Positions 3,637 to 29,861 of a stretch of 64,000 nt of DNA are shown here, one piece after another. The stretch spans positions 31,997-95,996 of the forward strand of contig JAFZVE010000072.1 of assembly GCA_017617995.1 (NCBI GenBank), written 5' to 3'. The notes beneath the pieces were generated by a model, which was not told where the DNA came from, did not search any database, and saw nothing but the letters and a program-made list of their open reading frames with translations. How positions within the stretch are numbered: the stretch's first letter is position 1; each line of letters opens with the position of its first letter. Both the position numbers and the translations under genes were made by a program. This stretch comes from Clostridiales bacterium. Lineage in GTDB: Bacteria > Bacillota > Clostridia > Saccharofermentanales > Saccharofermentanaceae.

Positions 3637-4590
3637 TTAGAACAGACTGCTGTCCGTGATCTTCTTCGACGCGAAGTTCGCGATCGACAGCAGAACCAGA
3701 TTGATGAGGCCTTCGAAGAGTCCGACGGCCGTCGCATAACTGTAGTTACCTGATCCGATACCCATTCGGTACACATACGTCGATACGATGTCAGCCGAAG
3801 AGTAGATCATCGGATTGTAAAGCAGGAATACCTTTTCAAAAGCACCGCCCGATCCGACGAGTCCGCCGATGTCGAGGATCAGGAGTGTCGTGATCGTCGG
3901 AAGGATACTCGGGATCGTGATATGCCAGACACGCTGGAAATGACCGGCGCCATCGACAGCCGCCGCTTCATACAGATTCGGGTTGATGTTGGCCATCGCG
4001 GCAAGATAGAGGATCGTGCCCCAGCCGAGACCCTGCCAGAGTCCCGAGATCGTAAATATCGCACTGAAGTATTTCGCGACCGCCAGGAACTGGATGCGGG
4101 AACCGCCAAGTGCCTCGAGAAAACCATTGATCGGACCGGATGTCGCAGTCAGTTCCTTGATGATACCGCACACGATAACCATCGAGATGAAGTGCGGAAG
4201 ATAGGACACGGTCTGCACGAACTTCTTCCAGTGAAGATTGCGGATCTCATTGATGAGAAGTGCGAAGATCAGTGTCAGCGGGAAGCGGAAAAGAAGATAT
4301 GTGATGTTCAGGGTCAGTGTATTTCGGAAGGCTCTCCAGAAAGTCTTATCTCTGGTGAACTGCTTGAAATACTTCAGTCCGCTGTTTTCTGAACCGAAGA
4401 TATTACCGCCGGCTCTATATTTTCGGAAAGCGATGATGTTACCGAACATAGGGACATAACGGAATACGATGTAGTACACCACCGGCACCAGCAGCATCAG
4501 ATAGATCTGCCAGTAAAGACCGATATGCCGGCTCATGCTGAAGTGCTTCTTCGAAGGTGTCCACTCCGATTTCATTTGATTACTGCTCAT
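3637..4590 (-). CDS. carbohydrate ABC transporter permease (LplB/YteP, MalF-type)
   Basis: 317 aa and multi-TM, with the EAA-like loop YEAAAVDGAGHFQRVWHITIPSILP. The N-terminus resembles LplB-family permeases. Confidence 0.9.
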   Translation of the reverse strand: MSSNQMKSEWTPSKKHFSMSRHIGLYWQIYLMLLVPVVYYIVFRYVPMFGNIIAFRKYRAGGNIFGSENSGLKYFKQFTRDKTFWRAFRNTLTLNITYLLFRFPLTLIFALLINEIRNLHWKKFVQTVSYLPHFISMVIVCGIIKELTATSGPINGFLEALGGSRIQFLAVAKYFSAIFTISGLWQGLGWGTILYLAAMANINPNLYEAAAVDGAGHFQRVWHITIPSILPTITTLLILDIGGLVGSGGAFEKVFLLYNPMIYSSADIVSTYVYRMGIGSGNYSYATAVGLFEGLINLVLLSIANFASKKITDSSLF

Positions 4591-4710
4591 ACTAGACCCT
4601 CTTTTTTCCTGATTTCACCTGCATAGTGGGAAGTGTCGCACATGGCTTGGGGGTAATCAGGAGGCGTTGTTCAAACCATGCTCCATGTGCGCCTTCTCTT
4701 ACTTCCACAC

Positions 4711-4757
4711 TTGTATGCTAGTTGTCTACGCCCAAAGAATACCACCATACTAGTAAT
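4711..4757. promoter_or_regulatory. candidate GntR-regulator operators upstream of the ABC importer operon
   Basis: TTGTATGCTAGTTG (4711-4724) and ATACTAGTAAT (4747-4757). The same ATRCTAGT core occurs at three other promoters in the locus. Confidence 0.45.
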
Positions 4758-4810
4758 CTGTCAACACTCGTCTTTTGTTTTTTCGTGATTCTTTAGCCAA
4801 CATGCACAAA

Positions 4811-4844
4811 CGCCCGACTGAACGGCATTTCGTTCAATCGGGCG
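4811..4844 (-). terminator. predicted Rho-independent terminator after the esterase gene
   Basis: CGCCCGACTGAACG / CGTTCAATCGGGCG form a 14-bp stem (1 mismatch) with a 6-nt loop. The T-tract is weak on both strands. Confidence 0.45.
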
Positions 4845-4922
4845 TCTTTGTCGCCAAATATACCAGGCAGGTCCTTTATCCGATCATTCTCGGTGATAGA
4901 GAAGTTTTATGTTGGAAAACGG

Positions 4923-6557
4923 TCAGTGATAGAAGAGCTCTTCCGCCTTCTCGGCCATGCGCGCGCCGAGTTCGCTCTTCCTCTGTGGGTGAAGTTCGAG
5001 CGGCGTAAAAAGATCACGCGCATAGACGACCGCACAGCCGGGCACTTCTTGCTCCGCCTCGCGCTGCTGCTCCTGGATGCTCGTCCAGCCCTCCGGCATC
5101 TCTCCCGAAATCGGGTCCTGATAGTCCGGCATCTCGACAGCAAGGACCGGAATATCGTCCTTAAGAACAGATCTCCATGCATCGATCATACTCGCGAACT
5201 TCTCGTGATACCGCGCGGGCTGCTCCGTATTCGATTCACCCTGATACCACCAGATCCCGCGGAAGGAATAGTCTCTTAAAGGAACGACCGTCGATCGGTA
5301 AAGTGAGGTCGGGATCGTCTGCCCCATCAGGAAAGCCGTCTGCGGACACGCCGCTTCTCTTCCCCACTTTCTCTTCCATTCTCCCTCGAGAAGAACCACT
5401 TCGTCGCCGGATCTCAGATAATACGGATGGCTACTCACGAAGCCGCCGGCGCCGCCCTCGATGATCAGGCGTACCGTGATGACGTTACGCCCTTTTCGGA
5501 GAATCGTACCGTCGAAGGGGTATTTTCTCGGTGGATATCTATACTCGGTCCGACCGACCTGTACACCGTTTATGTACGTCACATCGGCATCGATCAGATC
5601 TCCGACGTATAAGAAAGCATCCGGAACCGGATCATTCTGAAGTTCGAATTCTTTATAGAACCACACCACTCCGCGGTATGGTCTGACTGCTTTTTCCTTC
5701 TCATCCTCTGTGCCGGAATCTCCACCGCAGGAAATCTCCTCAGGCATTTCCGTCGAAGTATCGCTGCCGGACAGAAGTGTTTTTCCGTAAAGGATCGAGG
5801 GCACAGCGAAGCTCTCCGCATCCTCCGGGATCTGTTCCGGTGTCCCGGCGGGAAATTCCGCATCGTCCCCGGACTCGAGTGCTGCGCGCCAGGATGCAAT
5901 ATGCTCTTCTCTTCTTCTCAGGTATTCCTGCACGGCCCCGTCCGGAAGGAAATCCGCGATCACCTCATCAAAATCCCCGAATCCCCGGAGCACCTCGCGC
6001 GGCATCCAGGACTCGATCGTCGATCCTCCCTGTGCGCCGAGCACCAGTCCGACCGGAATCTTCATCTTATCGTAGAGGCGCTTCGCACAGTAAAAACCGG
6101 CGGCACTCATCTGCCCGATCTCCTCCGGTACCGCTCTCGTCCACGGCAGGCGCGGAAGCTCCGCGATCTTATCCTCCGCCAGGCGGAACTGTGGCGTCAC
6201 GCGGTACTGCCGGATATACGGATAGTCAGACGCGTCGACCTCTTCCTGCGATACGTCCAACGTCCGCGAGACCGGAAGCTCCATATTCGACTGACCCGTA
6301 AGGAAGAAAACGTCGCCGAAGCAGACATCATGAAGTACGATCTTCTCACTTCCCGTGATGGTAATCATGACATCCCGTGCTTCTTCCTGTGCCGGTATCT
6401 CCACGGCAAAAGCACTGTCTTTTACTTCTGTCCGATAGGTCCTGCCGAAAAGTTCGACCGTAACTTCGCGCGATTGATCTTCGTGCCCGAAGATCGTGCA
6501 CGTCTTCCCACGCTGAAGGATCATCCCATCTGAGAAAATACCGGCCAGTTCTAACAT
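4923..6557 (-). CDS. sialate O-acetylesterase-like (SASA/DUF303) carbohydrate esterase
   Basis: 544 aa. The motifs GDVFFLTGQSNME and GAQGGSTIESW are typical of this SGNH-type esterase family. Confidence 0.8.
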   Translation of the reverse strand: MLELAGIFSDGMILQRGKTCTIFGHEDQSREVTVELFGRTYRTEVKDSAFAVEIPAQEEARDVMITITGSEKIVLHDVCFGDVFFLTGQSNMELPVSRTLDVSQEEVDASDYPYIRQYRVTPQFRLAEDKIAELPRLPWTRAVPEEIGQMSAAGFYCAKRLYDKMKIPVGLVLGAQGGSTIESWMPREVLRGFGDFDEVIADFLPDGAVQEYLRRREEHIASWRAALESGDDAEFPAGTPEQIPEDAESFAVPSILYGKTLLSGSDTSTEMPEEISCGGDSGTEDEKEKAVRPYRGVVWFYKEFELQNDPVPDAFLYVGDLIDADVTYINGVQVGRTEYRYPPRKYPFDGTILRKGRNVITVRLIIEGGAGGFVSSHPYYLRSGDEVVLLEGEWKRKWGREAACPQTAFLMGQTIPTSLYRSTVVPLRDYSFRGIWWYQGESNTEQPARYHEKFASMIDAWRSVLKDDIPVLAVEMPDYQDPISGEMPEGWTSIQEQQREAEQEVPGCAVVYARDLFTPLELHPQRKSELGARMAEKAEELFYH

Positions 6558-18378: not shown

Positions 18379-20208
18379 TTAATCGTAATAGAATACTTTT
18401 CCCTTCGGACGGAAAGGCAGGCGTTTTCCCTTCGGGATCAGGAAAGCGTGCGACCTCTTGACCACGAGGTCATTCTCGATCTCTCCGTCCGTGATGATGA
18501 GGATCGGGCCGTCCTTCGGGAAGGTTTTCGAGGTTTCCAGCAGGTCCACACCGGGCTGTAACACTGTTCCACCACGGCCCTTCACCTCTACTCTCCCGGC
18601 CACATCCTCCGGTGAGAGGTATCCGGCGTCATATGCCTCCGCATCGCAGAATACCACACGCATCTTCGGGACATCTTTCGCGTCGGCATAGCTCGCGATA
18701 GCCCCGAGCGCGATACCGATATCGTGCGCACTCATCGAGCCGGACGTGTCGATGACCACGCCGAAAGTTCTTCCGTCCGTGGCGCTCTCGGAGAGGTAGT
18801 ACCGAGGCCTCGGGATATCCGGGGTGCTGGCCTGACGGCGGCTCGGCCGTGCATACGTCCTGACCTTCTCGACCGGCGCGAAATAATCGTCGAACCACTT
18901 GGCAAGCTCGACATCCCAGGGGATCGGCGGCATCGCAAGTGCGCGGATCTCCTCGATCAGCCCCGCCGGGATGCGTCCGCGCGAGGAGGTCAGATGGTAC
19001 TCGAGGCCCTGCATCAGGGCACTCTTACAGTATTCGTCGAGCGTGACGGTACCGACCATCACATCGCCTTTTCCGATGATATCGCCCTTTCCGTAGCCAC
19101 GGAGGGTCTGAAGCTTTCTCGACACGCGGAGATTCCGCACGAGCTCGTCGTAGATCTCTTCGGCAGACATCCCGGCAAGCGACTCATCGTAGAGCGTCCC
19201 GTTCTGCGGCTGGGTGCCGATGTGCATCTCCGTGAGCCAGCTGTTGATGACGAAGTCGCAGGCCACATTCCAGAGTTCGGGATCTCTACCCGTCCGTCTT
19301 CTCGCATGCCCGAGTCCGGCATGCAGATACTCGTGTGCGAGCACGAACTTCAGTTCATCGGGCTTTAATCCCGCGGCCGGATTCACGTAGATCTCGCCGG
19401 CATCGATGTCGATGGCCGCGATCGAGATCTCGTTTCTCATGCAGAAAAGCGCATCCTCTTTCACCTTAAAATGCGCGGCGAGTCCGCCGAGGAGCGGGTA
19501 GCTGTTGATGAACCACAGCGCCGCGCGCTTCGCCTCGGTGTCGACGTTCTCCGCGGGTCCCTCGTCCGAAGAAGGGGTCCCCGCAGTGCGAAGTACTTTT
19601 CGCACGGAACCTTGCAGTGCCCGAGAAAAGGATTTCTCGAAGTGATCGCGGCTCTGCCAGCGGTACGTGAATTCATCCCAGATCGTGTCGAGCTCGTCGA
19701 TATCGCATTTGTCCGCGCCAAAAACACTGAAGCACGTGTACTGATCGATCTCCTCGCGGTGTTCGCAGAGATATTCGTAGATGGTTTTTTCGTTACGAAG
19801 ACTACCCTTGAAATCGTCAAGGCGCACGACAATATCCGGCTCACCCGGGAACTTCACGTCGTGCAGAAACTTCGTCACGAAGATATCGCACGCGACGTTC
19901 CAGATGCGGATGTCGACGCCCTTGCTGACGTGGTCGGGATTGGCCTGGCCGAGGCAGAGATGGAGCATCAGGTGCGCGAAGATATACGCCCACTCATGCG
20001 GCTCGCGGTGCGCGGTCTTGTTGTACTTGATGTTTCCATGGGGGGTGACACAGGCGGCGCCGGGGAATCCCTTCGCGCACTCGATCGGGCGGAAGTAGAA
20101 ATCCCTTCCGTTCACAAGCGGACCGAAGAGCGCGTGATTCTCGATGATCTCCCGCCCCGCCATGACATTCTGCTCCACTATGGAAGGTTGTTTTGATTTC
20201 TTTCCCAT
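18379..20208 (-). CDS. VWA-domain protein with duplicated DUF2201_N-like putative metallopeptidase domain
   Basis: The C-terminal VWA has a MIDAS-like VVIDTSGSMS. There is an intact HEYLH (VLAHEYLHAGLGH ... WNVACDFVIN) and an upstream degenerate copy (FAHLMLHLCLGQ ... WNVACDIFVT). Confidence 0.8.
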   Translation of the reverse strand: MGKKSKQPSIVEQNVMAGREIIENHALFGPLVNGRDFYFRPIECAKGFPGAACVTPHGNIKYNKTAHREPHEWAYIFAHLMLHLCLGQANPDHVSKGVDIRIWNVACDIFVTKFLHDVKFPGEPDIVVRLDDFKGSLRNEKTIYEYLCEHREEIDQYTCFSVFGADKCDIDELDTIWDEFTYRWQSRDHFEKSFSRALQGSVRKVLRTAGTPSSDEGPAENVDTEAKRAALWFINSYPLLGGLAAHFKVKEDALFCMRNEISIAAIDIDAGEIYVNPAAGLKPDELKFVLAHEYLHAGLGHARRRTGRDPELWNVACDFVINSWLTEMHIGTQPQNGTLYDESLAGMSAEEIYDELVRNLRVSRKLQTLRGYGKGDIIGKGDVMVGTVTLDEYCKSALMQGLEYHLTSSRGRIPAGLIEEIRALAMPPIPWDVELAKWFDDYFAPVEKVRTYARPSRRQASTPDIPRPRYYLSESATDGRTFGVVIDTSGSMSAHDIGIALGAIASYADAKDVPKMRVVFCDAEAYDAGYLSPEDVAGRVEVKGRGGTVLQPGVDLLETSKTFPKDGPILIITDGEIENDLVVKRSHAFLIPKGKRLPFRPKGKVFYYD

Positions 20209-20326: not shown

Positions 20327-21385
20327 TTACTTCGATATCAGACGCGGCAGATCGCGGACGATCTCCACCATAAACCAGTCAGGAAGTGCTTTGCCATCCT
20401 CATCGGAAACCACCAGCTGCGCCATCTCGAAATTGATCGCCGCGAGATCCTTCATGAGGGCCTTCGCGCGGTGCGTGAAGAACTGCGTATTTGCATCCAT
20501 CTTCTCCTTATCCTTCGGAAGTTCAAGAAGGAGACGGTCGCGGAAGGACTGCGCCAGGAAATACAGAACGTCTCTTTCCTCCGGCGCGGCCGGCCAACGC
20601 GCTTCGCCCTTGATGATCTCCGACAGGAGATTCTTATTCCCGAGCTGCTTGGTAAAGGCGACGAACATACCGGCGTGGCTCGGACTGACTGTACCATATG
20701 CCAGCATCTTCAGTGTCTCCGACTTCGGCGAGATGCCGGTCTTATCGTATTCCTTCAGAAGGTCGCTCAGTGTGTGCCACGAACGCGGCGTCGAGAACGG
20801 CTCCTCCGTTTTCGGAGGATTGCTGAAGAGGTGATCCGGACGGATCGTGATGTACTCCGTCACCCACGGATGAACCTCCGCTTCGTACGCCCACTGCAGC
20901 CACTTCTCCGCATCGACCTTCAGCTGGACGTGGAACATCCTGTTGATGAGGGCCGAGGACATGGTCTTTACGATCGCGCTGTCCTGCGCACGGTTGCCCG
21001 CGCCGATGACGACGCTTCCCTTCGGCAGGTGATACTCACCGATCCTGCGCTCGTAGATCAGACTGTAGAAGGCCTTCTGCACCTCCTGCGAGCAGGCATT
21101 CAGCTCGTCGAGGAAAAGGACGTAAGGTTCTTTTCGTGCGATCATCTTCGGCGGCAGAAATTCCGACACATCCTCGCTGATACGCGGGATGCCGATGATG
21201 TCCTCCGGCGCGAGCTGGCTTCCGAGAAGCGAGACGCAGTCCATGCCCACATCCTTACTGAACTTCTCGACCAGAGCGGATTTGCCGATACCCGGCGCGC
21301 CCCAGATGAACACCGGCCGCACCGGCGCCACCGTAAGCAGGACCTCCGAAAGTTCCTCCTGATTTACCGAAATGGGAAGATTCAT
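20327..21385 (-). CDS. MoxR-like AAA+ ATPase (AAA_5)
   Basis: Walker A GAPGIGKS, Walker B LFLDELN, and single-AAA MoxR/CbbQ-like length. It lies immediately upstream of the VWA gene. Confidence 0.85.
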   Translation of the reverse strand: MNLPISVNQEELSEVLLTVAPVRPVFIWGAPGIGKSALVEKFSKDVGMDCVSLLGSQLAPEDIIGIPRISEDVSEFLPPKMIARKEPYVLFLDELNACSQEVQKAFYSLIYERRIGEYHLPKGSVVIGAGNRAQDSAIVKTMSSALINRMFHVQLKVDAEKWLQWAYEAEVHPWVTEYITIRPDHLFSNPPKTEEPFSTPRSWHTLSDLLKEYDKTGISPKSETLKMLAYGTVSPSHAGMFVAFTKQLGNKNLLSEIIKGEARWPAAPEERDVLYFLAQSFRDRLLLELPKDKEKMDANTQFFTHRAKALMKDLAAINFEMAQLVVSDEDGKALPDWFMVEIVRDLPRLISK

Positions 21386-21528
21386 ATTGACCCCCTTTTC
21401 CTTTCATCGCTTATGCTTTTTCAGTATAAAAGTATGCTTTTACGTTATACTTTTTCTTGTAAGTGAATCATGCTTCTCATATTTCCATGTTGCTTTCATG
21501 TTATGCATTTTTCGGGAAAGAATCAAGA

Positions 21529-21557
21529 ACCGCCCGGTATACGGAATACCGGACGGT
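21529..21557 (-). terminator. predicted terminator after the lipoprotein gene
   Basis: ACCGCCCGGTAT-ACGGA-ATACCGGACGGT lies 30 nt past stop 21587. The minus strand continues TCTTGATTCTTTCC. Confidence 0.55.
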
Positions 21558-21586
21558 CCTTTCGTAATATGTACGGTTTAGGAGGA

Positions 21587-23161
21587 TCAGGTTTTGTGCT
21601 GAAGCGAGAAGAAATAGGTGTTCTCACGGATATAGACGCCACCGCCGAAATACTCGGATACATCTGTTTCCAACTCGCGCGGACCATCGAGTTCTTCGAT
21701 CAGTAACTGAACGCCATATTCCTGAAGTTCGATCGTGGCCTTTCTATAGAAGGTCTCGCCCGGATCGACCTGACCGTTGTAGTTTCTGTCATCCCAGCCA
21801 TGATACCAGAAGTTCGTGACATTCTGATTCAAAGGAAGGATGACCGGATCCAGTTCTGCCGTTCTGTAGAACCACAGATAGACCTCGATATTCTCACCGT
21901 CCTCATCCGCTAAGAGGAAAAGCTCGATACTGCCTTCGTTGATGGAATACCTACCGTTGTAAAGGGAGTAATCGCTGATCTCGCGGTACTCCGGCGTGTA
22001 ACCGAACTGCATGCCGATAAAATCATCATCTGTCGGGAGGTAACAGTTTCGCAGGTAATAGAGCGCCCTGTTGCAGTTGACGTATCCCCGGATCTCATGA
22101 TACGGAGTCGATGCTGTTGTTTCGCCCCACGGACCGGCATCTCCGACGATCATATCATAGAGTGTGAATTCTCTTGCTATAAAGTCCATGTGATTCTCCG
22201 TTCTCAGCTCAGCGATACGGTTCGAATATGGTATATAGGTGAAATAATCACTGGAGTCGCAGTACAACTGCTCAAGAACGGGACATGGTTCCCCATCTAA
22301 GTATGTATAGATACTTAAGTAATAGCCATCGTCCACTTCGGACATATCGGAGATAATGAGCTCAGGGATATCATCGGTATTCAGATGCATGAAAGAAGCT
22401 CTCACTTTATAGTTTCCGTCGTACTGCTGCAGGATCGTCCGGTAGTAGTAATCATTTAATGTGTCAAGCGTGATGTATCCGTACTGACATAGACTCGGAT
22501 CCGAATAAGATGTTTCCGATTCATAGGTATCTTCGTCATATGCATCCTCTTCATATTCATATACATCGTCTGCATTTGCATCTTCTGCCGGAGCCTGCGA
22601 CTCTTGCGGCTGCTCTACCTGCCTCTCTGCCGGGGCGGTTTCCGATGATTCCGCCGGGGCCTGTTCCTGAGTCGCTGCCGGAGCCTGGGTTTCGCTCTGT
22701 GCAGGTGCCTGGTTCACGCCCTGTGCAGGTGCCTGGTTTCCTGACGCGGCCGGAGCCTGGTCATCAGCCTTCGCAGGGTCCTGTGTCGCAGCCGGAGCCT
22801 GGTCAGATGAGTTCGCTTTCCCACTGTTTCCGCTTCCTGCATCTACGCTCTTCCCCGCCTGACCGCCTGCATTTGCGGTTGCTGTTCCATTATTGGTCTC
22901 AGCAGAAGAACGATTTCCTGAAAGAACATTCTTTCCGCTTCCGTCATCCTGCGGAGAGATAACATTGCCGTCCTCATCCGTGACAACAGGCTGGGACCCG
23001 TTCTGTTTTTCCGAACCGTTCAGATACGTATCCGCGATTCCCGAGACCAGCGATTCGATCTGCTTTTCATCACCATCAATTTCCAGAGTGCATCCGGATG
23101 CGCCGAGCGCTACGGAAACCGTAAGTGCCAATACCGCTGCCATCGCCTTCATCTGTTTCAT
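21587..23161 (-). CDS. secreted lipoprotein with QAPA-rich linker and C-terminal domain paralogous to the BlaR1-like sensor domain
   Basis: MKQMKAMAAVLALTVSVALGASGC is a lipobox, with a GGAGG RBS. The C-terminal ~300 aa align by eye with the C-terminus of 23512..25983. Confidence 0.8.
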   Translation of the reverse strand: MKQMKAMAAVLALTVSVALGASGCTLEIDGDEKQIESLVSGIADTYLNGSEKQNGSQPVVTDEDGNVISPQDDGSGKNVLSGNRSSAETNNGTATANAGGQAGKSVDAGSGNSGKANSSDQAPAATQDPAKADDQAPAASGNQAPAQGVNQAPAQSETQAPAATQEQAPAESSETAPAERQVEQPQESQAPAEDANADDVYEYEEDAYDEDTYESETSYSDPSLCQYGYITLDTLNDYYYRTILQQYDGNYKVRASFMHLNTDDIPELIISDMSEVDDGYYLSIYTYLDGEPCPVLEQLYCDSSDYFTYIPYSNRIAELRTENHMDFIAREFTLYDMIVGDAGPWGETTASTPYHEIRGYVNCNRALYYLRNCYLPTDDDFIGMQFGYTPEYREISDYSLYNGRYSINEGSIELFLLADEDGENIEVYLWFYRTAELDPVILPLNQNVTNFWYHGWDDRNYNGQVDPGETFYRKATIELQEYGVQLLIEELDGPRELETDVSEYFGGGVYIRENTYFFSLQHKT

Positions 23162-23241
23162 CGTTTTATCCTCCGATAATCCTTTTTCTTTTCTTGTTGT
23201 TTTTGTCTTGTTTTCGATATCTTTTGCAACATTGCAAGGTC

Positions 23242-23270
23242 ATTCTACACATGTAGTATCTCCATGTCAA
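23242..23270 (-). promoter_or_regulatory. sigma-A-type promoter of the lipoprotein gene (TTGACA-17-TAGAAT)
   Basis: The minus strand reads TTGACA (23270-23265), a 17-nt spacer and TAGAAT (23247-23242). It is almost identical to the blaI promoter. Confidence 0.6.
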
Positions 23271-23314
23271 TAGATTTTTCTACATTTGTAGAAATTTTTT
23301 CTATATTTGTAGAA
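23243..23314. promoter_or_regulatory. three BlaI/MecI-type operator dyads (TTCTAC-N4-GTAGAA)
   Basis: TTCTACACATGTAGTA at 23243-23258 overlaps the -10. TTCTACATTTGTAGAA is at 23278-23293 and TTCTATATTTGTAGAA at 23299-23314. All carry the TACA..TGTA core known for BlaI/MecI. Confidence 0.65.
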
Positions 23315-23511
23315 TTTCTTTCAGGGAAAAGTGCTTTTCGCGCGGTAAAAAGCCATCCCCGAAAGGCATTTCGCCTTCCGGTGACGGTTTTCTACAAATT
23401 TAGAATAATAACAGAAGAAGCCGGGTTCTGTCCCGGCCCGGAGATGTCGCACGTCGTAGAATCAGACCCGCACGCCGCCAGCAGGATCAGACAGTTCTTT
23501 CGCCGGCAGGA

Positions 23512-25983
23512 TCAGGTCGTTCTGTCGTCGAAGGTATAGTACTGTGTCTGCGCGGAGATATAGTCACTCCTATAGAACTTGCTGATCACATTCAGGTCCC
23601 ACACGAACTCCTCCCGGGAAATATCCTCGAGCGTGACCTTGATCCCGTCAGACAGAAGTTCGACAGTGCCTTTGCGGAAGAGCAGCTCGTCATCTTCGAC
23701 TATGTTATTGTAGTTCCGATCTACAACGATCTCATCATAGAATACGCAGATATTGTCTTCTATAGGAAGTGTGACCTCATGAAGTTCGGCCCCGGCAAAG
23801 AAATACCAGCTGATCGTGATCCTCTGATCGCCTTCATAACGGAACGTGAACTTCGTATATCCGTTTGCAGTTGTATAAGTACCATCGTACTTGCTGTAAT
23901 CATCGATCGTCATGCGGGTCGGCTGATACCGCCCCGGTGTCGTCTCGGACGGTGTCTCGTAAGGATCGGTATCCGAAGGGGTCTCATAAGGAGTTTCGTA
24001 AGGAGTCTCATACGTGGACTCGTACGGGGTCTCATAAGGGGGCTCGTAAGGCGTCTCGTACGGATCCGAAGTATCGTACGGCTGCTCGTAGATGTCCGTG
24101 GCCGTAGCCATACCGTCCGAAGTCGGCGCCATCGGGTCGGCCGTCGCATCCGTGAGATCCGTCACATCTGTCGTATACTCATCTGGATCCCGTAGCATCC
24201 GGTACGGGTGTCGTTCATAGAGCGCATCGATCGGGATGTTACCGAGTTCCAGGTGCTCGATCGTCTGTTTCGCACTCTCATAACCGACCACCACCCACGA
24301 AGGTGCATTTTTATCATAAGGAATCGCCGTCCCATCCTGCTCACCAGAATAATCCATCATCCAGAACCGGTAGATGAAGTACTGCGGCGTGCTGTTCTCG
24401 TCGCTACCGGGCGGAACAATGTAGCTACAGAAGGCATTGCTGTAAGGACAGTAACAGTAGAACCAGTCCTCTATCTCGTTCACATACGACGACTCGATCA
24501 CCGTATACAACTGGCCGTTCTTAAAGGTGTAAACCGAGAGTACGTATTCCCATGTTTCGTAACTGTTTGTGTAGTCCGAGATCACCAGCTCCGGGTAGAA
24601 ATCGTCGTCGATGTGCGGGAGGAAATACAGAATATTGTCATTATCCCTTCCGTATGAATCGATGATTTCGATATAAGCCTGCGCGCATTCATCCATGAGA
24701 TAATCCGTCGTCTCCGATGTGGACGGGGATGTGGACTCGGATGTAGCCGATGTTTCCGACTCCGGAGTAGTCTCGGATGTGCTTTCCACTGCCGGCGCCG
24801 TCGTGCTTTCCGAGCCTTCCGTCGCCGAAGAGGGTACACTCTCCTCTGTCTTCTCCGTCTCTTCACTCTCCAGCGACCTTCCCGCTTTTTCGAGGAAATC
24901 CTCCAAGGAAGTACCGTACGAACGCGACGACATGAGGAGCACGACACTGCAAGTGACGATGACGGAGATAAGCATCATGTACTTCGAGTGCTTCCTGTTC
25001 TTAAGAAGATTCTTGATGCGCATCTTCGTCTCCATCCCGCCGAAGCCGAGGCCGCTGAATGCCGTCTGCTGCAGGAACGATCCCCTTCGCTCGAAACGCG
25101 CATGCTCGACCAGTGAACGGCAGTACTCCTTGACCATCTCCATATCGAAAGCAAGCGTCGTCTCTTCGTCCACGCGCATCTCGATGTCGGCGCAGAGGAT
25201 GACGAACGACAGCCATACGAGGGGGTTGAACCAGTGGAGGCAGAGCACGAAATAGCTGAAGAGCTTGGTGATGCCGTCCTTATTCTTGATGTGCGTCCAC
25301 TCGTGGTTGAGGATGTATTCTTTCTCATCGTCATCGAGATGGACCGGGATAAAGATCTTCGGTCTTATGAATCCGATGACGAACGGGGTCTCGATATTCG
25401 TGGTGAAGTACCGCCCGTCGTAGGCGCGCGAGTTCCATCTCGCCTTCGAATAAAAGAGGATATACCGGACGGTAAAGAGGATGACCAGTCCGACTACGAC
25501 GACAAGCCAGATGATCGCGAAGACGCGGAATACCCGGGCTTCGGACTTACTGAGTGTTTCTTTTTCTTCTGCAAATGCACTTGTCCCCGCATCTTTTGTT
25601 TTTGCGGTTTTTCCCGTGCGTGCCTCTTCCGCTTCCGGATCTGTGATTTCTTTTCCTTTCGATATCGATTCAACTTCGTCTGCGTCATTCTTGATTAGAC
25701 CGGAGTCTGCACCATTTTTGAGATCGGCCGCGCCCGAGTGCTTTTCGAGCGTGACAGACTCAGCAGCCTCGCTCGACCCGCTCCAGAGCCGGCTTATATT
25801 CAGCACACTCGTCGGCATAGCCAGATTAAAGGGGCAGATCAGGCGGAACGCGACGACCAGCCAGAAGAGGATCAGGATCCGCTTCGGGCATTTTCTGAAA
25901 ATGAGCCGGAACAGAAGCACGATCAGGATCGCGATGCTCCCGTAGAGGCTCATTTCGAGAATCTTTGCAAACACTGCGTTCAT
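23512..25983 (-). CDS. BlaR1/MecR1-like M56 peptidase signal transducer with non-canonical extracellular domain
   Basis: The HEWTHIKNKD zinc motif sits in a multi-TM N-terminal half. The start is taken as ATG 25983 (MNAVFAKILE...), while the track start 25998 is a TTG overlapping the blaI stop. The C-terminal half has a Ser/Thr/Glu linker, PYET repeats and a domain shared with the lipoprotein. Confidence 0.8.
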   Translation of the reverse strand: MNAVFAKILEMSLYGSIAILIVLLFRLIFRKCPKRILILFWLVVAFRLICPFNLAMPTSVLNISRLWSGSSEAAESVTLEKHSGAADLKNGADSGLIKNDADEVESISKGKEITDPEAEEARTGKTAKTKDAGTSAFAEEKETLSKSEARVFRVFAIIWLVVVVGLVILFTVRYILFYSKARWNSRAYDGRYFTTNIETPFVIGFIRPKIFIPVHLDDDEKEYILNHEWTHIKNKDGITKLFSYFVLCLHWFNPLVWLSFVILCADIEMRVDEETTLAFDMEMVKEYCRSLVEHARFERRGSFLQQTAFSGLGFGGMETKMRIKNLLKNRKHSKYMMLISVIVTCSVVLLMSSRSYGTSLEDFLEKAGRSLESEETEKTEESVPSSATEGSESTTAPAVESTSETTPESETSATSESTSPSTSETTDYLMDECAQAYIEIIDSYGRDNDNILYFLPHIDDDFYPELVISDYTNSYETWEYVLSVYTFKNGQLYTVIESSYVNEIEDWFYCYCPYSNAFCSYIVPPGSDENSTPQYFIYRFWMMDYSGEQDGTAIPYDKNAPSWVVVGYESAKQTIEHLELGNIPIDALYERHPYRMLRDPDEYTTDVTDLTDATADPMAPTSDGMATATDIYEQPYDTSDPYETPYEPPYETPYESTYETPYETPYETPSDTDPYETPSETTPGRYQPTRMTIDDYSKYDGTYTTANGYTKFTFRYEGDQRITISWYFFAGAELHEVTLPIEDNICVFYDEIVVDRNYNNIVEDDELLFRKGTVELLSDGIKVTLEDISREEFVWDLNVISKFYRSDYISAQTQYYTFDDRTT
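23941..24090 (-). repeat. coding 12-nt tandem repeats (PYET repeats) inside the BlaR1-like gene
   Basis: The protein reads PYETPYEPPYETPYESTYETPYETPYETPSDTDPYETPSETTP. The DNA shows reiterated GTCTCGTAAGG/GTCTCATAAGG-like units. Confidence 0.8.
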
Positions 25984-25994
25984 CGGGGCAGGCC

Positions 25995-26372
25995 TCAATC
26001 TTCCGTGTGGTTCTCGATCATCTCGATCAGTTTTGCGGCGTCATCTTTGCTCAGGCTCTTCTTGCCGCCGCTTCCGAGAAATGCACTTACGAAGCTCGGC
26101 AGCGATCCTTTGAAGTTCTTCTCCACCACTTCATTACTCTGCTGGTGCTGGACTTCCTCGCGGCGCACGAGATACGTGATCTTCGCCTTGTTGCTCGCGA
26201 CAAAGCCCTTATCGGACAGGCGCTTGATCATGGTATAGACGGTCGTCTTCTTCCATCCGTGCAGCTCCGCACAGATGTCCGACAGCTCGCCGGAAGAAAT
26301 CGGAGCACGATCCCAGATCAACTCCATCAGTTTAAATTCACTATCACCTATCGAATTGTCTTTCATGGGCAT
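25995..26372 (-). CDS. BlaI/MecI/CopY-family transcriptional repressor
   Basis: 125 aa. The winged helix EFKLMELIWDRAPISSGELSDICAELHGWKKTTVYTMIKRLSDKGFV is present, with an AAGGAG RBS. It lies directly upstream of the M56 gene. Confidence 0.9.
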   Translation of the reverse strand: MPMKDNSIGDSEFKLMELIWDRAPISSGELSDICAELHGWKKTTVYTMIKRLSDKGFVASNKAKITYLVRREEVQHQQSNEVVEKNFKGSLPSFVSAFLGSGGKKSLSKDDAAKLIEMIENHTED

Positions 26373-26394
26373 ACTCCTTTCACATTACGCGTCT

Positions 26395-26423
26395 ATTCTA
26401 CCCATGTAGAACTCCGATGTCAA
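26395..26423 (-). promoter_or_regulatory. sigma-A-type promoter of the blaI-blaR1-like operon (TTGACA-17-TAGAAT)
   Basis: The minus strand reads TTGACA (26423-26418), a 17-nt spacer and TAGAAT (26400-26395). Confidence 0.6.
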
Positions 26424-26445
26424 GAATCATTCTACTTTTGTAGAA
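26396..26445. promoter_or_regulatory. two BlaI/MecI-type operator dyads
   Basis: TTCTACCCATGTAGAA at 26396-26411 overlaps the -10. TTCTACTTTTGTAGAA is at 26430-26445. Confidence 0.65.
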
Positions 26446-26612
26446 GAGCATCACAGTTCTGCGAAGAGCAACGCCTGATGGTAGTTTCATCCGAGGTCAC
26501 GAGGTTTCCCTTATTCTGTTGATAACTCGTGATACAGATACGAAAAAGCGTCATGAGGTATTTCTCATTTCGATGAAACCTCGTGTCTTCGAATTCGAGA
26601 GTCCGCTTGAAT

Positions 26613-26974
26613 GCAAGAGGTCAGCGCTTTTCCGGCTTGACCTCTTGTATCGGGGCGAAGAAAAATACAAGAGGTCGACAGAATTTCGACTTGACCTCTT
26701 GTATCGGGGCGAAGAAAAATACAAGAGGTCGACAGGATTTCGACTTGACCTCTTGTATCGGGGCGAAGAAAAATACAAGAGGTCGACAGGATTTCGACTT
26801 GACCTCTTGTATCGGGGCGAAGAAAAATACAAGAGGTCGACAGGATTTCGGCTTGACCTCTTGTATCGGGGCGAAGAAAAATACAAGAGGTCGACAGGAT
26901 TTCGACTTGACCTCTTGTATCGGGGCGAAGAAAAAAACAAGAGGTCGACAGGATTTCGACTCGACCTCTTGTAT
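26613..26974. repeat. tandem array A: one degenerate plus six near-identical 54-bp units, each built from a 12-bp inverted repeat
   Basis: GACCTCTTGTAT starts at 26639, 26693, 26747, 26801, 26855, 26909 and 26963, an exact 54-bp period. ATACAAGAGGTC starts at 26665 and every 54 bp thereafter. The linkers alternate between CGGGGCGAAGAAAA (14 nt) and GACAGGATTTCGACTT (16 nt). Confidence 0.95.
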
Positions 26975-27003
26975 CAGCATCATTCTCGTTTTCCGTTTAG
27001 TAT

Positions 27004-28419
27004 TCAGATCCTCGTTCCGCACTCCTGGCAGAAAGCGCCTGTAGGCGGAAGCGGTTTTCCGCAGTTCATGCAGAACTTCGGACGTGCTGCCTGCGGTGCT
27101 GCCGGAGCCGCTGCCTGGGCGGGCGCTGCCGGTGCTGCTGCCGCGCCAGCATCCGCGCCTTCCCACAGTTCCTTCGGATAGCCGCTGTTCTTAAGGAAGT
27201 TCACCGCATTTACCTCGGAGCCGTCCGGGTATGTCGGGCCGAACATCTTCTTAGCTTTTTCCGCCTCGATCGCCGCGCCCTGAAGCGGAGTCAGACCCTG
27301 AGCTTTCCAGTTCGCGAGCTGCTGCTGACGGGCCGCTTCCATCGCAGCCTGCATTTGTGCCGCCATCTTCGCCGGATCGCTGGCGAGTTCCATCTTCTGC
27401 GTCATGCTATCGAGCTTCATCTTTTCCTTGCCGTCCATCGTGATACTACCGATCGTGATCTCGAGTACATTGTCGCCGGAATTACGAAGTTCCTCGGCTG
27501 CCTTCTGTGCGATCTCATCGGCCTTGCTTCCGAGATCCAGCACCGATACATCGCGCAGATTCATCAGCTGCATATTGATATTCATCACGACCATGTCCGC
27601 CATCATCGAGAGTTTCTTCTCATAGTAATCCGGCTCGAACTTGGTCATATCGATCGTATACGTACCGCTCATGTCGATCTTGCAGGTCATTTTTGTCTTC
27701 GCATCACGCATCGCCAGTGTCGCTGTTCCACCTACCGAAGAAAAAGCGGCGGTGATCCGGTCGACCTTCGCCGTCGGAACCGGGCCTACAGGCGCAAGTG
27801 CTTTTTCAAAGATAACAAAAGGCTTCTCATACTGTGCAGCACCGCCGAGCTGGCTCGCCATTTTTGCTTCTTCGACCTTCTCCCGCTCTGCTCTCGCCTG
27901 CTGCTTCGCGGCTCTTGACGCATCGCTCTCTCTTAAAGAAATGTGCGAGATATCTGTTCTTACCTGCAGTCCCAGCGCCTCGATCTTCGGGAAAAGCACC
28001 GGATCGAATTCCTTGTCGCGCATCATGATCGAGGTCGCGCCGAGCATCGTGCCCTTCGCCTGCTCTTCTTCCTTGATCTTCAGGATGAATGCCTTCGCCT
28101 CCGGGACCACGGTCTGGTAGATCTTCCCCATCACTTCCTGCTCTGTGCGGAAGGGAGCACCCTCGACAGGGATGACGTTGAGGACGCCGTTCGGGACGAT
28201 GGTCTCCTTGCCCATCATCGACTCGATTTCCACGCCGACTTCTGTTTTCACGCGGATCGCGATCGTCTTACCGGGTGTGATCGGCGTGCCCTGGGGCTGT
28301 GCCATCGGCTGCTGCATCGGCATGCCCTGCTGACCTTGCATTGGAGCCCCTGCCTGGCCCTGGAACGGAGCCGGCTGACCCTGCATATTGTTACCATTCG
28401 GATTCTCGAAATATCCCAT
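27004..28419 (-). CDS. hypothetical protein with Q/P/M-rich N-terminus and C-terminal zinc ribbon
   Basis: Trimmed to ATG 28419 (MGYFENPNG) after GGGAGGAAG. The C-terminus FCMNCGKPLPPTGAFCQECGTRI is a CxxC..CxxC motif. The central part is charged and helical. Confidence 0.7.
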   Translation of the reverse strand: MGYFENPNGNNMQGQPAPFQGQAGAPMQGQQGMPMQQPMAQPQGTPITPGKTIAIRVKTEVGVEIESMMGKETIVPNGVLNVIPVEGAPFRTEQEVMGKIYQTVVPEAKAFILKIKEEEQAKGTMLGATSIMMRDKEFDPVLFPKIEALGLQVRTDISHISLRESDASRAAKQQARAEREKVEEAKMASQLGGAAQYEKPFVIFEKALAPVGPVPTAKVDRITAAFSSVGGTATLAMRDAKTKMTCKIDMSGTYTIDMTKFEPDYYEKKLSMMADMVVMNINMQLMNLRDVSVLDLGSKADEIAQKAAEELRNSGDNVLEITIGSITMDGKEKMKLDSMTQKMELASDPAKMAAQMQAAMEAARQQQLANWKAQGLTPLQGAAIEAEKAKKMFGPTYPDGSEVNAVNFLKNSGYPKELWEGADAGAAAAPAAPAQAAAPAAPQAARPKFCMNCGKPLPPTGAFCQECGTRI

Positions 28420-28484
28420 GTTTCTTCCTCCCTTGTTCCACAAATCTACTTGAGAATATTATATCAGAAAAGCACTTCTCCCGG

Positions 28485-29861
28485 TCACGATTCCGTCTCT
28501 TTTGCCACACGCGCGGCACACCAGTTCTCGAATTCCTGTTGCTTGGCATAGGACTCGAAATAGTACTCCTGAAACTCCGCCATCTCACTATCAGCGGCAT
28601 CTTCCTTCCAGTAAAGATACAGCCACGGTCCATCGCCGCCGGCCTCGAGTGATTCCTTCCGGCGCATCACTTTGCCACCTGAGATCAACTCCCATATCTT
28701 GTCGCACTCCTCGGCCGTGAGCTCGATCTTTCCGGAGTCTGTCACATCGGACTCCTCCAGCGGCCAGTGATCGCCCTCCCTTTTCTCGTGATAGAGGAAC
28801 CATTTCCCGTCCTCGCAGAGGATCTCGTAGCGCTGGAAGGTCGGCGGATCTGTCGAGTCCGAGCGGGTGAACCGGAATTCCTTCATCTGCTCGCGCGTCA
28901 CTTCGTCACCCACCACATACTCATATTTCGGAGTATTCTTCGCCATGAGCGATTCTCCATTTTTAATCGCATCCGTCATTACAGTGGCCGCCGTGAGGCC
29001 GAAGCCACCGAAAAACATGGCCGCCGAAAGCCCGCCCGCGATGGCAAACTTCGTAGCTTTATGGTGTTCGGGATCGATAAGCATCATGCCGGTCACGAGA
29101 AGGATCGGTGCGGCAAACGCGAAAAACATATATGCACCGAGCGCCGCGACGCCGTTGATTTCCATCACCTGCTCTGCCGAGCTCTCGGTGTTGATGAACT
29201 GATTGCCGAGATAGCTCAGCGTCGCCGCCGCGAAGTTATTGAGGAAATGCATGAGCATCGGAAGAAGAATATTGTTTTTCTTAACAAGAAGGTACGACAT
29301 GATCGCACCAGCCGTCGCCGTACTCAGAAACCGAAGCGGCGACCAGTGCATGATACCGAAGAACACGCCCATGATGAGGACGATCACCCAGTCTTTCTTA
29401 ATCGACCGGAAATGGGACAGCACGCAGCCACGCTCCATCGACTCTTCACAGATCGCCGGCAGAAGCGCTACGACGAGCACCATCTCGAGGTAATTCATCT
29501 TTCCGTAGAGGAAATCCGACAGTCCCGTCACTTCGCTTCGGACGGACTTCGGAAGGACTGCGAGCGAGATACCGACACCCACCATACTGAAGAGAAATCC
29601 GGTCACCGCGAGAATCACGACACCCCAGAATTCTCTGCCCGTGATTTTCTTTACCGGGAACATCTCACGGAGTTTGACACGGCGGATGAGGCAGTACAGT
29701 ACCGAAACGACCAGGAACATCAGCTCGGATCCGATGAGTCCGGGGATGCCGTATGTTCTCTGCATCCACGCGCCCGCCGTGAGAAATAGTCCGAGAAAAC
29801 CCGCCTGTACCACAAATCCCATCCATGGGCGGAGTTTCTTCTGATTCGATACCTGTTCCAT
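28485..29861 (-). CDS. CPBP-family intramembrane glutamic endopeptidase with soluble C-terminal extension
   Basis: Motifs EESMERG, FGIMHWS and HFLNN lie in a multi-TM protein. An extra soluble domain of about 170 aa follows. Confidence 0.8.
   Translation of the reverse strand: MEQVSNQKKLRPWMGFVVQAGFLGLFLTAGAWMQRTYGIPGLIGSELMFLVVSVLYCLIRRVKLREMFPVKKITGREFWGVVILAVTGFLFSMVGVGISLAVLPKSVRSEVTGLSDFLYGKMNYLEMVLVVALLPAICEESMERGCVLSHFRSIKKDWVIVLIMGVFFGIMHWSPLRFLSTATAGAIMSYLLVKKNNILLPMLMHFLNNFAAATLSYLGNQFINTESSAEQVMEINGVAALGAYMFFAFAAPILLVTGMMLIDPEHHKATKFAIAGGLSAAMFFGGFGLTAATVMTDAIKNGESLMAKNTPKYEYVVGDEVTREQMKEFRFTRSDSTDPPTFQRYEILCEDGKWFLYHEKREGDHWPLEESDVTDSGKIELTAEECDKIWELISGGKVMRRKESLEAGGDGPWLYLYWKEDAADSEMAEFQEYYFESYAKQQEFENWCAARVAKETES

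Follow-up and report, generated by a model that had tools for sequence, protein, structure and literature searches.

What does a BlaI/BlaR1-like module respond to when its membrane sensor carries no penicillin-binding domain and instead resembles the lipoprotein encoded beside it? The question is raised by three genes in a 64-kb stretch of DNA from an uncultured rumen Clostridiales bacterium (hereafter the window, meaning the whole stretch analyzed), which encode a BlaI-like repressor, an M56 metalloprotease with a long C-terminal sensor region, and a lipoprotein. In this purely computational work, we found that the sensor region and the C-terminal part of the lipoprotein are two-domain paralogs, and that matching sets of putative operators precede blaI and the lipoprotein gene. 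The reading that we prefer, at a probability of roughly 0.55, is a BlaI-type derepression module of two transcription units whose sensor and output bind the same extracellular ligand. Taken separately, the regulatory architecture appears highly plausible, and the shared ligand is put forward tentatively, at somewhat less than even odds.

The three open reading frames lie where the original prediction, an earlier note on this DNA, had placed them:

25995..26372, minus strand: blaI-like repressor gene (125 aa), BlaI/MecI/CopY-family winged-helix protein
23512..25998, minus strand: M56 protein gene (828 aa, counted from a TTG start)
21587..23161, minus strand: lipoprotein gene (524 aa; signal peptide ends LGASG-C24)

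The listed TTG start of the M56 gene overlaps the blaI stop codon, and homologs start five codons downstream at an ATG (MNAVFAK).

A BlaI-Family Repressor and an M56 Protease With a Non-Penicillin-Binding Sensor

The repressor matches Penicillinase_R (PF03965; E = 9.7e-24, 84.4 bits against a Pfam cut-off of 22.6) over residues 8-120 and aligns with MecI (1OKR) over residues 4-116, i.e., over its full length, and it thus belongs to the BlaI family. The M56 gene abuts or overlaps blaI, and the protease half expected of its product is present: residues 12-304 match Peptidase_M56 (PF05569; E = 8.7e-35), with HEWTH at residues 232-236 (nt 25291..25305). Transmembrane helices were found at residues 16-34, 41-59, 159-177, and 340-358, together with a re-entrant hydrophobic segment at 250-268. 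Staphylococcus aureus BlaR1 (8EXP) aligns over its residues 190-340 only, which comprise the protease core and the last transmembrane helix. The module therefore shares with BlaR1/MecR1 an HExxH-containing M56 half beside blaI. Because of this homology with BlaR1, the M56 region past the last helix is predicted to be extracellular, which agrees with its paralog being a secreted lipoprotein.

This region does not resemble a penicillin-binding protein (PBP), as the original prediction had held. Residues 360-828 contain no S..K or K[ST]G motif anywhere; neither these residues nor the lipoprotein has a Pfam match, and the transpeptidase family (PF00905) gave none at E<=1. With the NCBIfam model blaR1_generic, the score is 78 bits where the cut-off is 400, and the match is limited to profile positions 166-326 of 585; confident AlphaFold2 models of the sensor domains have no PBP-like Foldseek match. 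The C-terminal class D beta-lactamase-like domain that characterizes BlaR1/MecR1 was thus not found. A transpeptidase-less M56 protein within five genes of a BlaI-like repressor is the definition of an atypical BlaIR system given in PMC13492132, and the module belongs among these systems. While the non-PBP sensor is real, it is not unusual: according to Kurtz et al. (2026; PMC13492132), only ~6% of roughly 15,000 M56 proteins carry a transpeptidase domain and ~94% lack one. A non-PBP sensor is therefore ordinary, and the distinctive feature of this module is the paralogy between sensor and output.

Two-Domain Paralogy Between the Sensor and the Lipoprotein

The two proteins can be divided as follows:

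24919..25998, minus strand: M56 zinc-protease half (residues 1-360)
24706..24918, minus strand: Ser/Thr/Glu-rich linker, predicted to be extracellular (M56 residues 361-431), 61% identical between the window and the related locus L001
24214..24705, minus strand: sensor N-domain (residues 432-595; family hidden Markov model [HMM] E = 1e-41)
23941..24213, minus strand: second low-complexity linker with PYETPYE repeats (M56 residues 596-686), absent from the lipoprotein
23515..23940, minus strand: sensor C-domain (residues 687-828), all-beta (family HMM E = 4e-42)
22493..23161, minus strand: lipoprotein signal peptide with lipobox (Cys24) and a ~200-aa Ala/Pro/Gln/Glu-rich linker
22013..22492, minus strand: lipoprotein N-domain (residues 224-383), paralog of the sensor N-domain
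21590..22012, minus strand: lipoprotein C-domain (residues 384-524), paralog of the sensor C-domain, directly adjoining the N-domain

This division agrees with the linker and two-part extracellular region originally described, and the proposed paralogy with the C-terminal 300 aa of the lipoprotein passed the pairwise alignment statistics that had been named as its check, both domain pairs being significant. By BLASTP, M56 residues 691-827 match lipoprotein residues 388-524 with 31% identity (E = 1e-14). M56 residues 377-521 match lipoprotein residues 171-314 at E = 7e-8 with low-complexity linker included, and the N-terminal part without linker retains E = 1.8e-5 against a six-frame translation of the whole window, in which no other place matches either part of the ectodomain. 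In a MAFFT alignment, the two regions are collinear with 29% identity, and the sole long gap corresponds to the PYETPYE linker of the sensor. The family HMMs match both proteins at E<=1e-37, and the N- and C-domains of the lipoprotein are under purifying selection (dN/dS of nonsynonymous to synonymous divergence 0.09-0.19, window versus L001). Because significance survives removal of the linker and the alignment is collinear, we conclude that, at the level of sequence, the paralogy is real and covers two domains.

The sensor N-domain carries the motif AY..I...Y.L..D.D.IPELV...VYTY..G. Both C-domains contain an EF-hand-like loop, DRNYNNIVEDDE in the sensor (residues 760-771, nt 23686..23721) and DRNYNGQVDPGE in the lipoprotein (residues 458-469, nt 21755..21790).

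Matching Putative Operators at Two Promoters

The following regulatory features were predicted:

26395..26443, minus strand: blaI-M56 promoter and operators (TTGACA-17-TAGAAT at 26423..26395)
26398..26409, minus strand: blaI promoter dyad CTACCCATGTAG, within the spacer and -10
26432..26443, minus strand: upstream dyad of the blaI promoter, CTACTTTTGTAG, 34 bp upstream
23242..23312, minus strand: lipoprotein promoter and operators (TTGACA-17-TAGAAT at 23270..23242)
23245..23256, minus strand: lipoprotein promoter dyad CTACACATGTAG, within the spacer and -10
23280..23291 (exact) and 23301..23312 (one mismatch), minus strand: upstream dyads of the lipoprotein promoter, 35 and 56 bp away
23392..23403, minus strand: fourth lipoprotein-side site (one mismatch)
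23418..23439, minus strand: terminator-like hairpin with T-rich tail after the M56 gene
21525..21561, minus strand: terminator-like hairpin with a 16-pair stem after the lipoprotein gene
23162..23241, minus strand: lipoprotein leader with the conserved element gaccTTGCAAtgTTGCAAaagatatc

The two promoters are the best sigma-70-type matches in 21300..27100 (11/12 positions each) and share the arrangement TTGACA-N8-CTACnnnnGTAG-AAT, in which the 3' half of a CTAC-N4-GTAG inverted repeat supplies the -10 and at least one further dyad lies upstream. The operator scan covered all 64 kb and found four exact CTAC-N4-GTAG sites, all within these two promoters (0.23 expected; 0/100 shuffles reach four). 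Six sites were found with at most one mismatch to CTACANNTGTAG, all in the same two intergenic regions (0.49 expected). These dyads are of the TACA/TGTA operator type of BlaI, MecI, and CopY, and their position at the repressor's own promoter is that expected of autoregulation. Because a terminator-like hairpin sits between the M56 and lipoprotein genes, the module probably comprises two transcription units, the blaI-M56 operon and the lipoprotein gene. Since the operator sets of the two units match, direct control of the lipoprotein gene by the BlaI-like repressor is very probable, and the blaI-M56 operon would be autoregulated.

Of the roles considered for the lipoprotein in the original prediction, that of regulated output is borne out by its own strong promoter, by BlaI-type dyads placed as in the blaI promoter, and by the retention of this arrangement in all related loci that were examined. 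Decoy and co-receptor are still possible functions of the lipoprotein as an output.

The element gaccTTGCAAtgTTGCAAaagatatc directly follows the -10 (23200..23241), folds as a small hairpin, and recurs in the leaders of the lipoprotein genes of the window, L001, L003, L004, and L005 (there the second lipoprotein gene, lipo2), despite divergence of the coding regions to about 25-50% identity. A role as a further regulatory site or as an RNA element is possible. No Rfam family was found in this leader or in a 54-bp repeat array upstream of blaI.

Conservation of the Layout in Related Loci

By genome scan, the module was found in metagenome-assembled genomes (MAGs) of rumen Clostridiales and Ruminococcaceae, and DNA of the window region is present in ruminant gut metagenomes. 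L001 is an 88% ortholog, overall identity is 40% for L003 and L004, a contig end truncates L002, and L005, on a rumen metagenome contig, has blaI, M56, and two lipoprotein paralogs. The promoter geometry (TTGACA-N8-dyad-AAT with upstream dyads) occurs in 12/12 promoters of the window and L001-L005, a comparison in which the coding ectodomains fall to 24-36% identity. In L001, the lipoprotein ortholog (3663..5207, 94% identical) has an in-frame stop between its N- and C-domains, reading HEIR, stop, YINCN where the window has HEIRGYVNCN; the stop reflects either pseudogenization or an error in the MAG assembly.

In two more distant loci, L009 and L011, the M56 protein has an N-domain followed by an unrelated C-terminal domain of ~235 aa, which we designate D. 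In the lipoprotein encoded downstream, domain D occurs twice in tandem (E = 8e-28 and 1.5e-23; 1e-17 and 4e-11). Its gene is preceded by three or four exact dyads, immediately in L009 and with another lipoprotein gene in between in L011. Scanning metagenomes with the conserved protease half yielded 16 additional loci.

A locus was evaluable if it had a complete M56 gene and enough downstream sequence, which left 16 (the window, L001, L003, L004, L005, L009, L011, L015, L016, L019-L022, and L024-L026). The three-gene layout was present in every one of them, which answers the question of co-occurrence elsewhere that accompanied the original prediction, and in all 16 the downstream lipoprotein or lipoproteins with exact dyads upstream match the ectodomain of their own sensor by BLASTP. 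These E-values range from 1e-17 to 1e-90, compared with 1e-14 for the window pair. The domain types of sensor and lipoprotein match even where domain D replaces the C-domain. Because flanking genes vary between lineages, the conserved unit is blaI-M56-lipoprotein(s), and conserved neighbors beyond the three genes were rejected as the flanks are not shared.

A second lipoprotein in the window (44693..45868, minus strand) had been thought to resemble the sensor. This did not hold: the likeness is confined to a motif of 22-24 residues, with hhalign probabilities of 1.7% and 30% and family HMM E>1, and the gene closely follows another gene and lacks upstream dyads. Homology (31% over 172 aa, E = 2e-15) was found with a family of 385-408-aa lipoproteins encoded directly behind the dyads in D-type loci, which has no match in Pfam, NCBIfam, or PADLOC and includes the following members:

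L011, 9677..10837: 385-408-aa family lipoprotein
L020, 3362..4579: 385-408-aa family lipoprotein
L024, 5422..6579: 385-408-aa family lipoprotein
L025, 12806..14032: 385-408-aa family lipoprotein

N-, C-, and D-Domain Families

Both domains are rare: only 72 matches at E<=1e-3 were obtained when 1.84 billion representative proteins were searched exhaustively by profile, and a second database search gave 22 unnamed proteins. When sensor residues 430-828 were compared with 5.8 billion proteins by word index, the single match was of low complexity. No match to Pfam, NCBIfam, or PADLOC was found on either ectodomain, on 64 family members, or on domain D. A match to PliI (E = 9.7e-5) occurred in only 1/64 members and was not used.

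Further N-domains are found in M56 proteins and in many unrelated lipoproteins. The C-domain occurs in lipoproteins with both domains, in M56 proteins, and in many transmembrane-anchored proteins of ~200 aa; some proteins with only C-domains have two or three copies (e.g., P0018 and P0021). These C-domain-only proteins come from AT-rich metagenomic Firmicutes-like contigs, and for one of them, P0087, the context in three contigs (L006..L008) includes no blaI or M56 nearby. Because such single-domain, membrane-anchored proteins occur without nearby blaI or M56 genes, the C-domain is a free-standing, unnamed family of extracellular modules.

AlphaFold2 models based on the family alignments are confident for both domains. 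The C-domain (pLDDT 95.2, pTM 0.88) has eight to nine beta strands, and the N-domain (pLDDT 91.4, pTM 0.88) has a helix, beta strands, and two C-terminal helices. Foldseek comparisons of both models with the PDB and of the C-domain with BFVD gave no significant match (best E 0.15, 0.033, and 0.13; TM-score <=0.42). The avidin/lipocalin-like and propeller-blade resemblances among these were too weak and were not assigned. A sequence-profile search of the PDB was likewise negative, with a loop of the SdrD B repeat (E = 0.94), KIF-binding protein (E = 0.55), and BA_2500 (4GUC; E = 0.12) as the best matches.

Across 32-33 members of the C-domain family, the one invariant column is a Glu, 11 residues past a nearly invariant Asp. 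The corresponding loop, D-x-[DN]-x-N-[GN]-x-[VI]-x-x-x-E, conforms to the 12-residue EF-hand-like Ca2+ pattern (acidic or amide side chains in positions 1, 3, and 5, Gly/Asn in 6, a hydrophobic residue in 8, and Glu in 12), so the C-domain likely has a conserved metal site, with Ca2+ binding suggested. SdrD B repeats and dockerins share this 12-residue pattern in their DxDxDG loops; the match to SdrD is local and non-significant, and the fold that surrounds the loop in the C-domain has no solved relative.

Divergence and Recombination of the Sensor

The sensor domains have evolved much faster than the rest of the module. When the window is compared with L003 or L005, the repressor is 82% and the protease core (residues 157-360) 76% identical, and the sensor domains are 24-36% identical; dN is 0.63-0.93 in the sensor domains versus 0.16-0.17 in the protease core, i.e., ~five-fold higher. 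Purifying selection on the domains is evident among close relatives (dN/dS 0.04-0.36).

Divergence is also uneven along the gene. Between the sensors of L003 and L004, the C-domain is 73% identical (dS 0.44), the N-domain 99%, and the protease half 96% (dS 0.13). Between the M56 genes of the window and L001, dS is 0.02-0.03 in the 3' third and 0.34-0.44 in the 5' part and blaI. Because the divergence between close relatives is a mosaic, this pattern indicates recombination breakpoints inside the sensor gene.

In neighbor-joining trees, the lipoprotein of the window is orthologous to L005 lipo2 (98% bootstrap, C-domain), and the sensor and lipoprotein of L003 group as sisters in both domains (100% bootstrap). 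Sensors of L003 and L004 are 44-49% identical to their own lipoproteins and 21-30% identical to the sensor and lipoprotein of the window. Because sensor and lipoprotein are sisters, the lipoprotein of the L003 lineage has, judging from the trees, been re-derived from, or converted by, its own sensor. General concerted evolution of each sensor with its own lipoprotein was considered and rejected, as only L003 and L004 show it. In the window, L005, and nine D-type loci, own and foreign lipoproteins are about equally similar to a sensor (median 27% and 26%, respectively).

A Proposed Derepression Circuit and Its Alternatives

In our preferred reading, the uninduced repressor would bind the CTAC-N4-GTAG dyads that overlap the -10 and lie upstream of the -35 at both promoters, and would thereby silence its own blaI-M56 operon and the neighboring lipoprotein gene. 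Upon induction, an extracellular signal would meet the M56 ectodomain (N-domain, linker, and C-domain) outside the last transmembrane helix, the cytoplasm-facing HEWTH zinc protease would be activated, and the repressor would be inactivated by proteolysis so that both promoters fire. The putative output is a lipid-anchored surface protein with paralogous copies of both domains on a linker of ~200 aa. By this logic, many surface copies of the binding module would be made only when the ligand is present, to sequester, neutralize, or capture it. A shared ligand would parallel the BlaR1 sensor and BlaZ/PBP2a, both of which bind beta-lactams, and also the sensor modules of RsgI and cellulosomal modules (PMC6852018; PMC4711584). 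The fast-diverging, recombining ectodomains suggest a variable partner.

Several points weigh against this reading. Repressor binding, proteolysis, and induction are all inferred by analogy with the bla/mec systems rather than from experiments, and no RNA-seq run holding the lipoprotein gene was found among those searched. The repressor residues aligned with N101-F102, the Asn-Phe scissile bond in the dimerization helix of BlaI/MecI, are A-F, not N-F (SFVSA/FLG versus SLVLN/FVE), although the repressor may be cleaved all the same. Neither the N- nor the C-domain has a relative in Pfam, NCBIfam, PDB sequences, or Foldseek by which a ligand could be named. L003 and L004 apart, sensors resemble foreign lipoproteins as much as their own, so the alignments give no general co-evolution signal for a shared ligand, nor for direct contact between the two proteins. 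Such contact fits the same paralogy data, and a shared ligand is only one explanation of them.

This homotypic contact is possible, although we think it unlikely. The sensor ectodomain would recognize the lipoprotein itself by heterodimerization of like domains, with no shared external ligand; the circuit would gauge or stabilize the amount or state of the surface lipoprotein, or the induced lipoprotein would turn the sensor off. It would account for why the domain type of the sensor always equals that of the lipoprotein, even after a swap from C-type to D-type, and for the sister relationship of the L003/L004 sensors and their own lipoproteins (100% bootstrap, both domains). BlaR1 itself is reportedly a dimer. 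The main target of CenIR is also an abundant exported protein that is thought to be structural (PMC13492132). However, the window, L005, and the nine D-type loci have no extra own-pair similarity (~27% versus 26% median), and because own pairs are as similar as foreign pairs, no maintained interface is visible in the sequences.

Less likely again, the N-, C-, and D-domains could be generic envelope-binding modules (for peptidoglycan, a secondary wall polymer, or the S-layer) that place their carriers on the cell surface. In that case, the sensor would report on the envelope state, as proposed for CenIR (PMC13492132) or Bacillus subtilis RsgI (PMC9732909), and the modules would be shared through common location. 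The long linkers are suited to spanning the wall, the N-domain occurs in many unrelated lipoproteins, and the C-domain stands alone in many membrane-anchored ~200-aa proteins, including P0087, which is not beside blaI/M56. Wall-binding modules, however, are usually conserved, whereas the N- and C-domains diverge ~five times faster than the protease core and are swapped between close strains (L003 versus L004; C-domain 73%, N-domain 99%), and we found no similarity to SLH, LysM, SH3b, CWB, or peptidoglycan-binding families.

A similarly improbable proposal is a surface immunity of matched sensor and decoy. Here the C- or D-type cassette would recognize an attacking protein, for example a bacteriocin or the receptor-binding protein of a phage. 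Contact with the sensor would trigger mass production of the lipoprotein, whose long-stalked cassettes would soak up the attacker away from the membrane, and strains might swap cassettes by recombination to keep up with it. This is loosely consistent with the ~five-fold faster ectodomains, the mosaic L003/L004 C-domain, the duplicated lipoproteins, and the long linkers, and PADLOC gave no defense-system match. If true, it would represent a new inducible, receptor-mimicking defense on a BlaIR chassis. Finally, that the similarity is a chance or low-complexity artifact, or that the lipoprotein is a dead duplicate functionally unconnected to the module, is extremely unlikely: the long low-complexity linkers of both proteins did give one spurious database match and the L001 ortholog has its in-frame stop, but this explanation is already refuted by significance outside the linkers, the family HMM matches, purifying selection, and recurrence with operators in 16/16 loci.

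Comparison With Known Systems

The closest parallels are BlaR1/BlaI-BlaZ and MecR1/MecI-PBP2a of Staphylococcus and Bacillus. There too, the repressor gene lies directly upstream of a gene for an HExxH M56 protein with a C-terminal extracellular sensor, an autoregulated operon is combined with a separate target promoter, paired TACA/TGTA-type dyads overlap the promoter, and the sensor is related to the regulated effector, both having the PBP/beta-lactamase fold. In contrast, the sensor of the present module lacks the class D beta-lactamase/PBP fold (no SxxK/KTG, no PF00905), its output is a lipoprotein rather than a beta-lactamase or PBP, and its repressor has A-F in place of the N-F cleavage dipeptide. 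Its sensor and output are close two-domain paralogs (27-49% identity), whereas those of bla/mec are distant superfamily relatives.

CenIR of Clostridioides difficile, an atypical BlaIR system that chiefly controls a downstream exported protein, likewise combines a BlaI-like repressor with a transpeptidase-less M56 protease (PMC13492132). CenR has only a short tail, predicted to lack structure for the most part, whereas the present ectodomain spans ~400 aa with two confidently folded domains. The available text of that study reports no sequence relationship between the CenR tail and CDR_0474; such paralogy defines the module described here. In Clostridium thermocellum, BlaI_0696 and BlaI_1845 have small autoregulated regulons of a blaI-blaR operon and hypothetical proteins, similar to what is predicted for the module, with two ordered inverted repeats in the target promoters, enough for four protomers (PMC8457756). 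The half-site there is GTCTAT/GACTAT as opposed to CTACA in the module, and no paralogy of sensor and output is described.

The RsgI/SigI systems of C. thermocellum (PMC6852018; PMC4711584) are similar in that an extracellular sensor module (CBM3, PA14, or GH-like) is of the same type as modules of the induced proteins, so that what the output binds is also what the cell senses. They also use regulated proteolysis and also occur in Clostridia living on plant biomass. However, they act through an anti-sigma factor, site-1 autoproteolysis, and RseP, rather than an M56 protease predicted to cleave a repressor. By Pfam, no anti-sigma-I domain or sigI was found in the three proteins and 10 neighbors, and no carbohydrate-binding module was detected in the ectodomains; the likeness is in logic only. 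In the literature searched, no sensor ectodomain is described as a paralog of a lipoprotein under its regulation, with domain types that change together, although this is a weak negative.

The module provides a second example, beyond bla/mec, of a sensor related to its effector. Beta-lactams are not what most annotated "BlaR" proteins sense (PMC13492132), and this clade gives a handle on their signal: because the sensor ectodomain copies a surface protein under its control, the ligand of the soluble lipoprotein domains, which are easy to produce, should reveal that signal. If the ligand is a plant polymer, bacteriocin, or phage protein, the module would be relevant to environmental sensing by rumen Clostridia. 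It also adds three unannotated families of extracellular domains (N, C, and D), two of them (N and C) modeled confidently, and the compact operator/promoter pair could serve as a reporter.

Surrounding DNA

The genes that flank the module are as follows:

20327..21385, minus strand: MoxR-like AAA ATPase, directly downstream of the lipoprotein gene
18379..20208, minus strand: DUF2201 metallopeptidase/VWA-like protein, downstream of the lipoprotein gene with MoxR
27004..28443, minus strand: upstream neighbor, 479 aa, with a Gln/Pro/Ala-rich N-terminus and a C-terminal zinc ribbon
within 27004..29861, minus strand: upstream neighbor, 458 aa, with a CPBP/Rce1-like intramembrane protease domain (PF02517)

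The MoxR/DUF2201 pair follows the module only in the window and in L001, and not in L003, L004, or L005; because synteny is limited to L001, the pair is probably unrelated to the module.

Between the zinc-ribbon gene and the blaI promoter, a tandem array (26636..26975) contains 6.3 copies of a 54-bp unit that are 98% identical. This array was not found elsewhere in the window or in any related locus examined. On the minus strand, each unit has a strong hairpin (ATACAAGAGGTC.../...GACCTCTTGTAT) followed by a T-run, and the array may represent a terminator in multiple copies or a locally expanded repeat.

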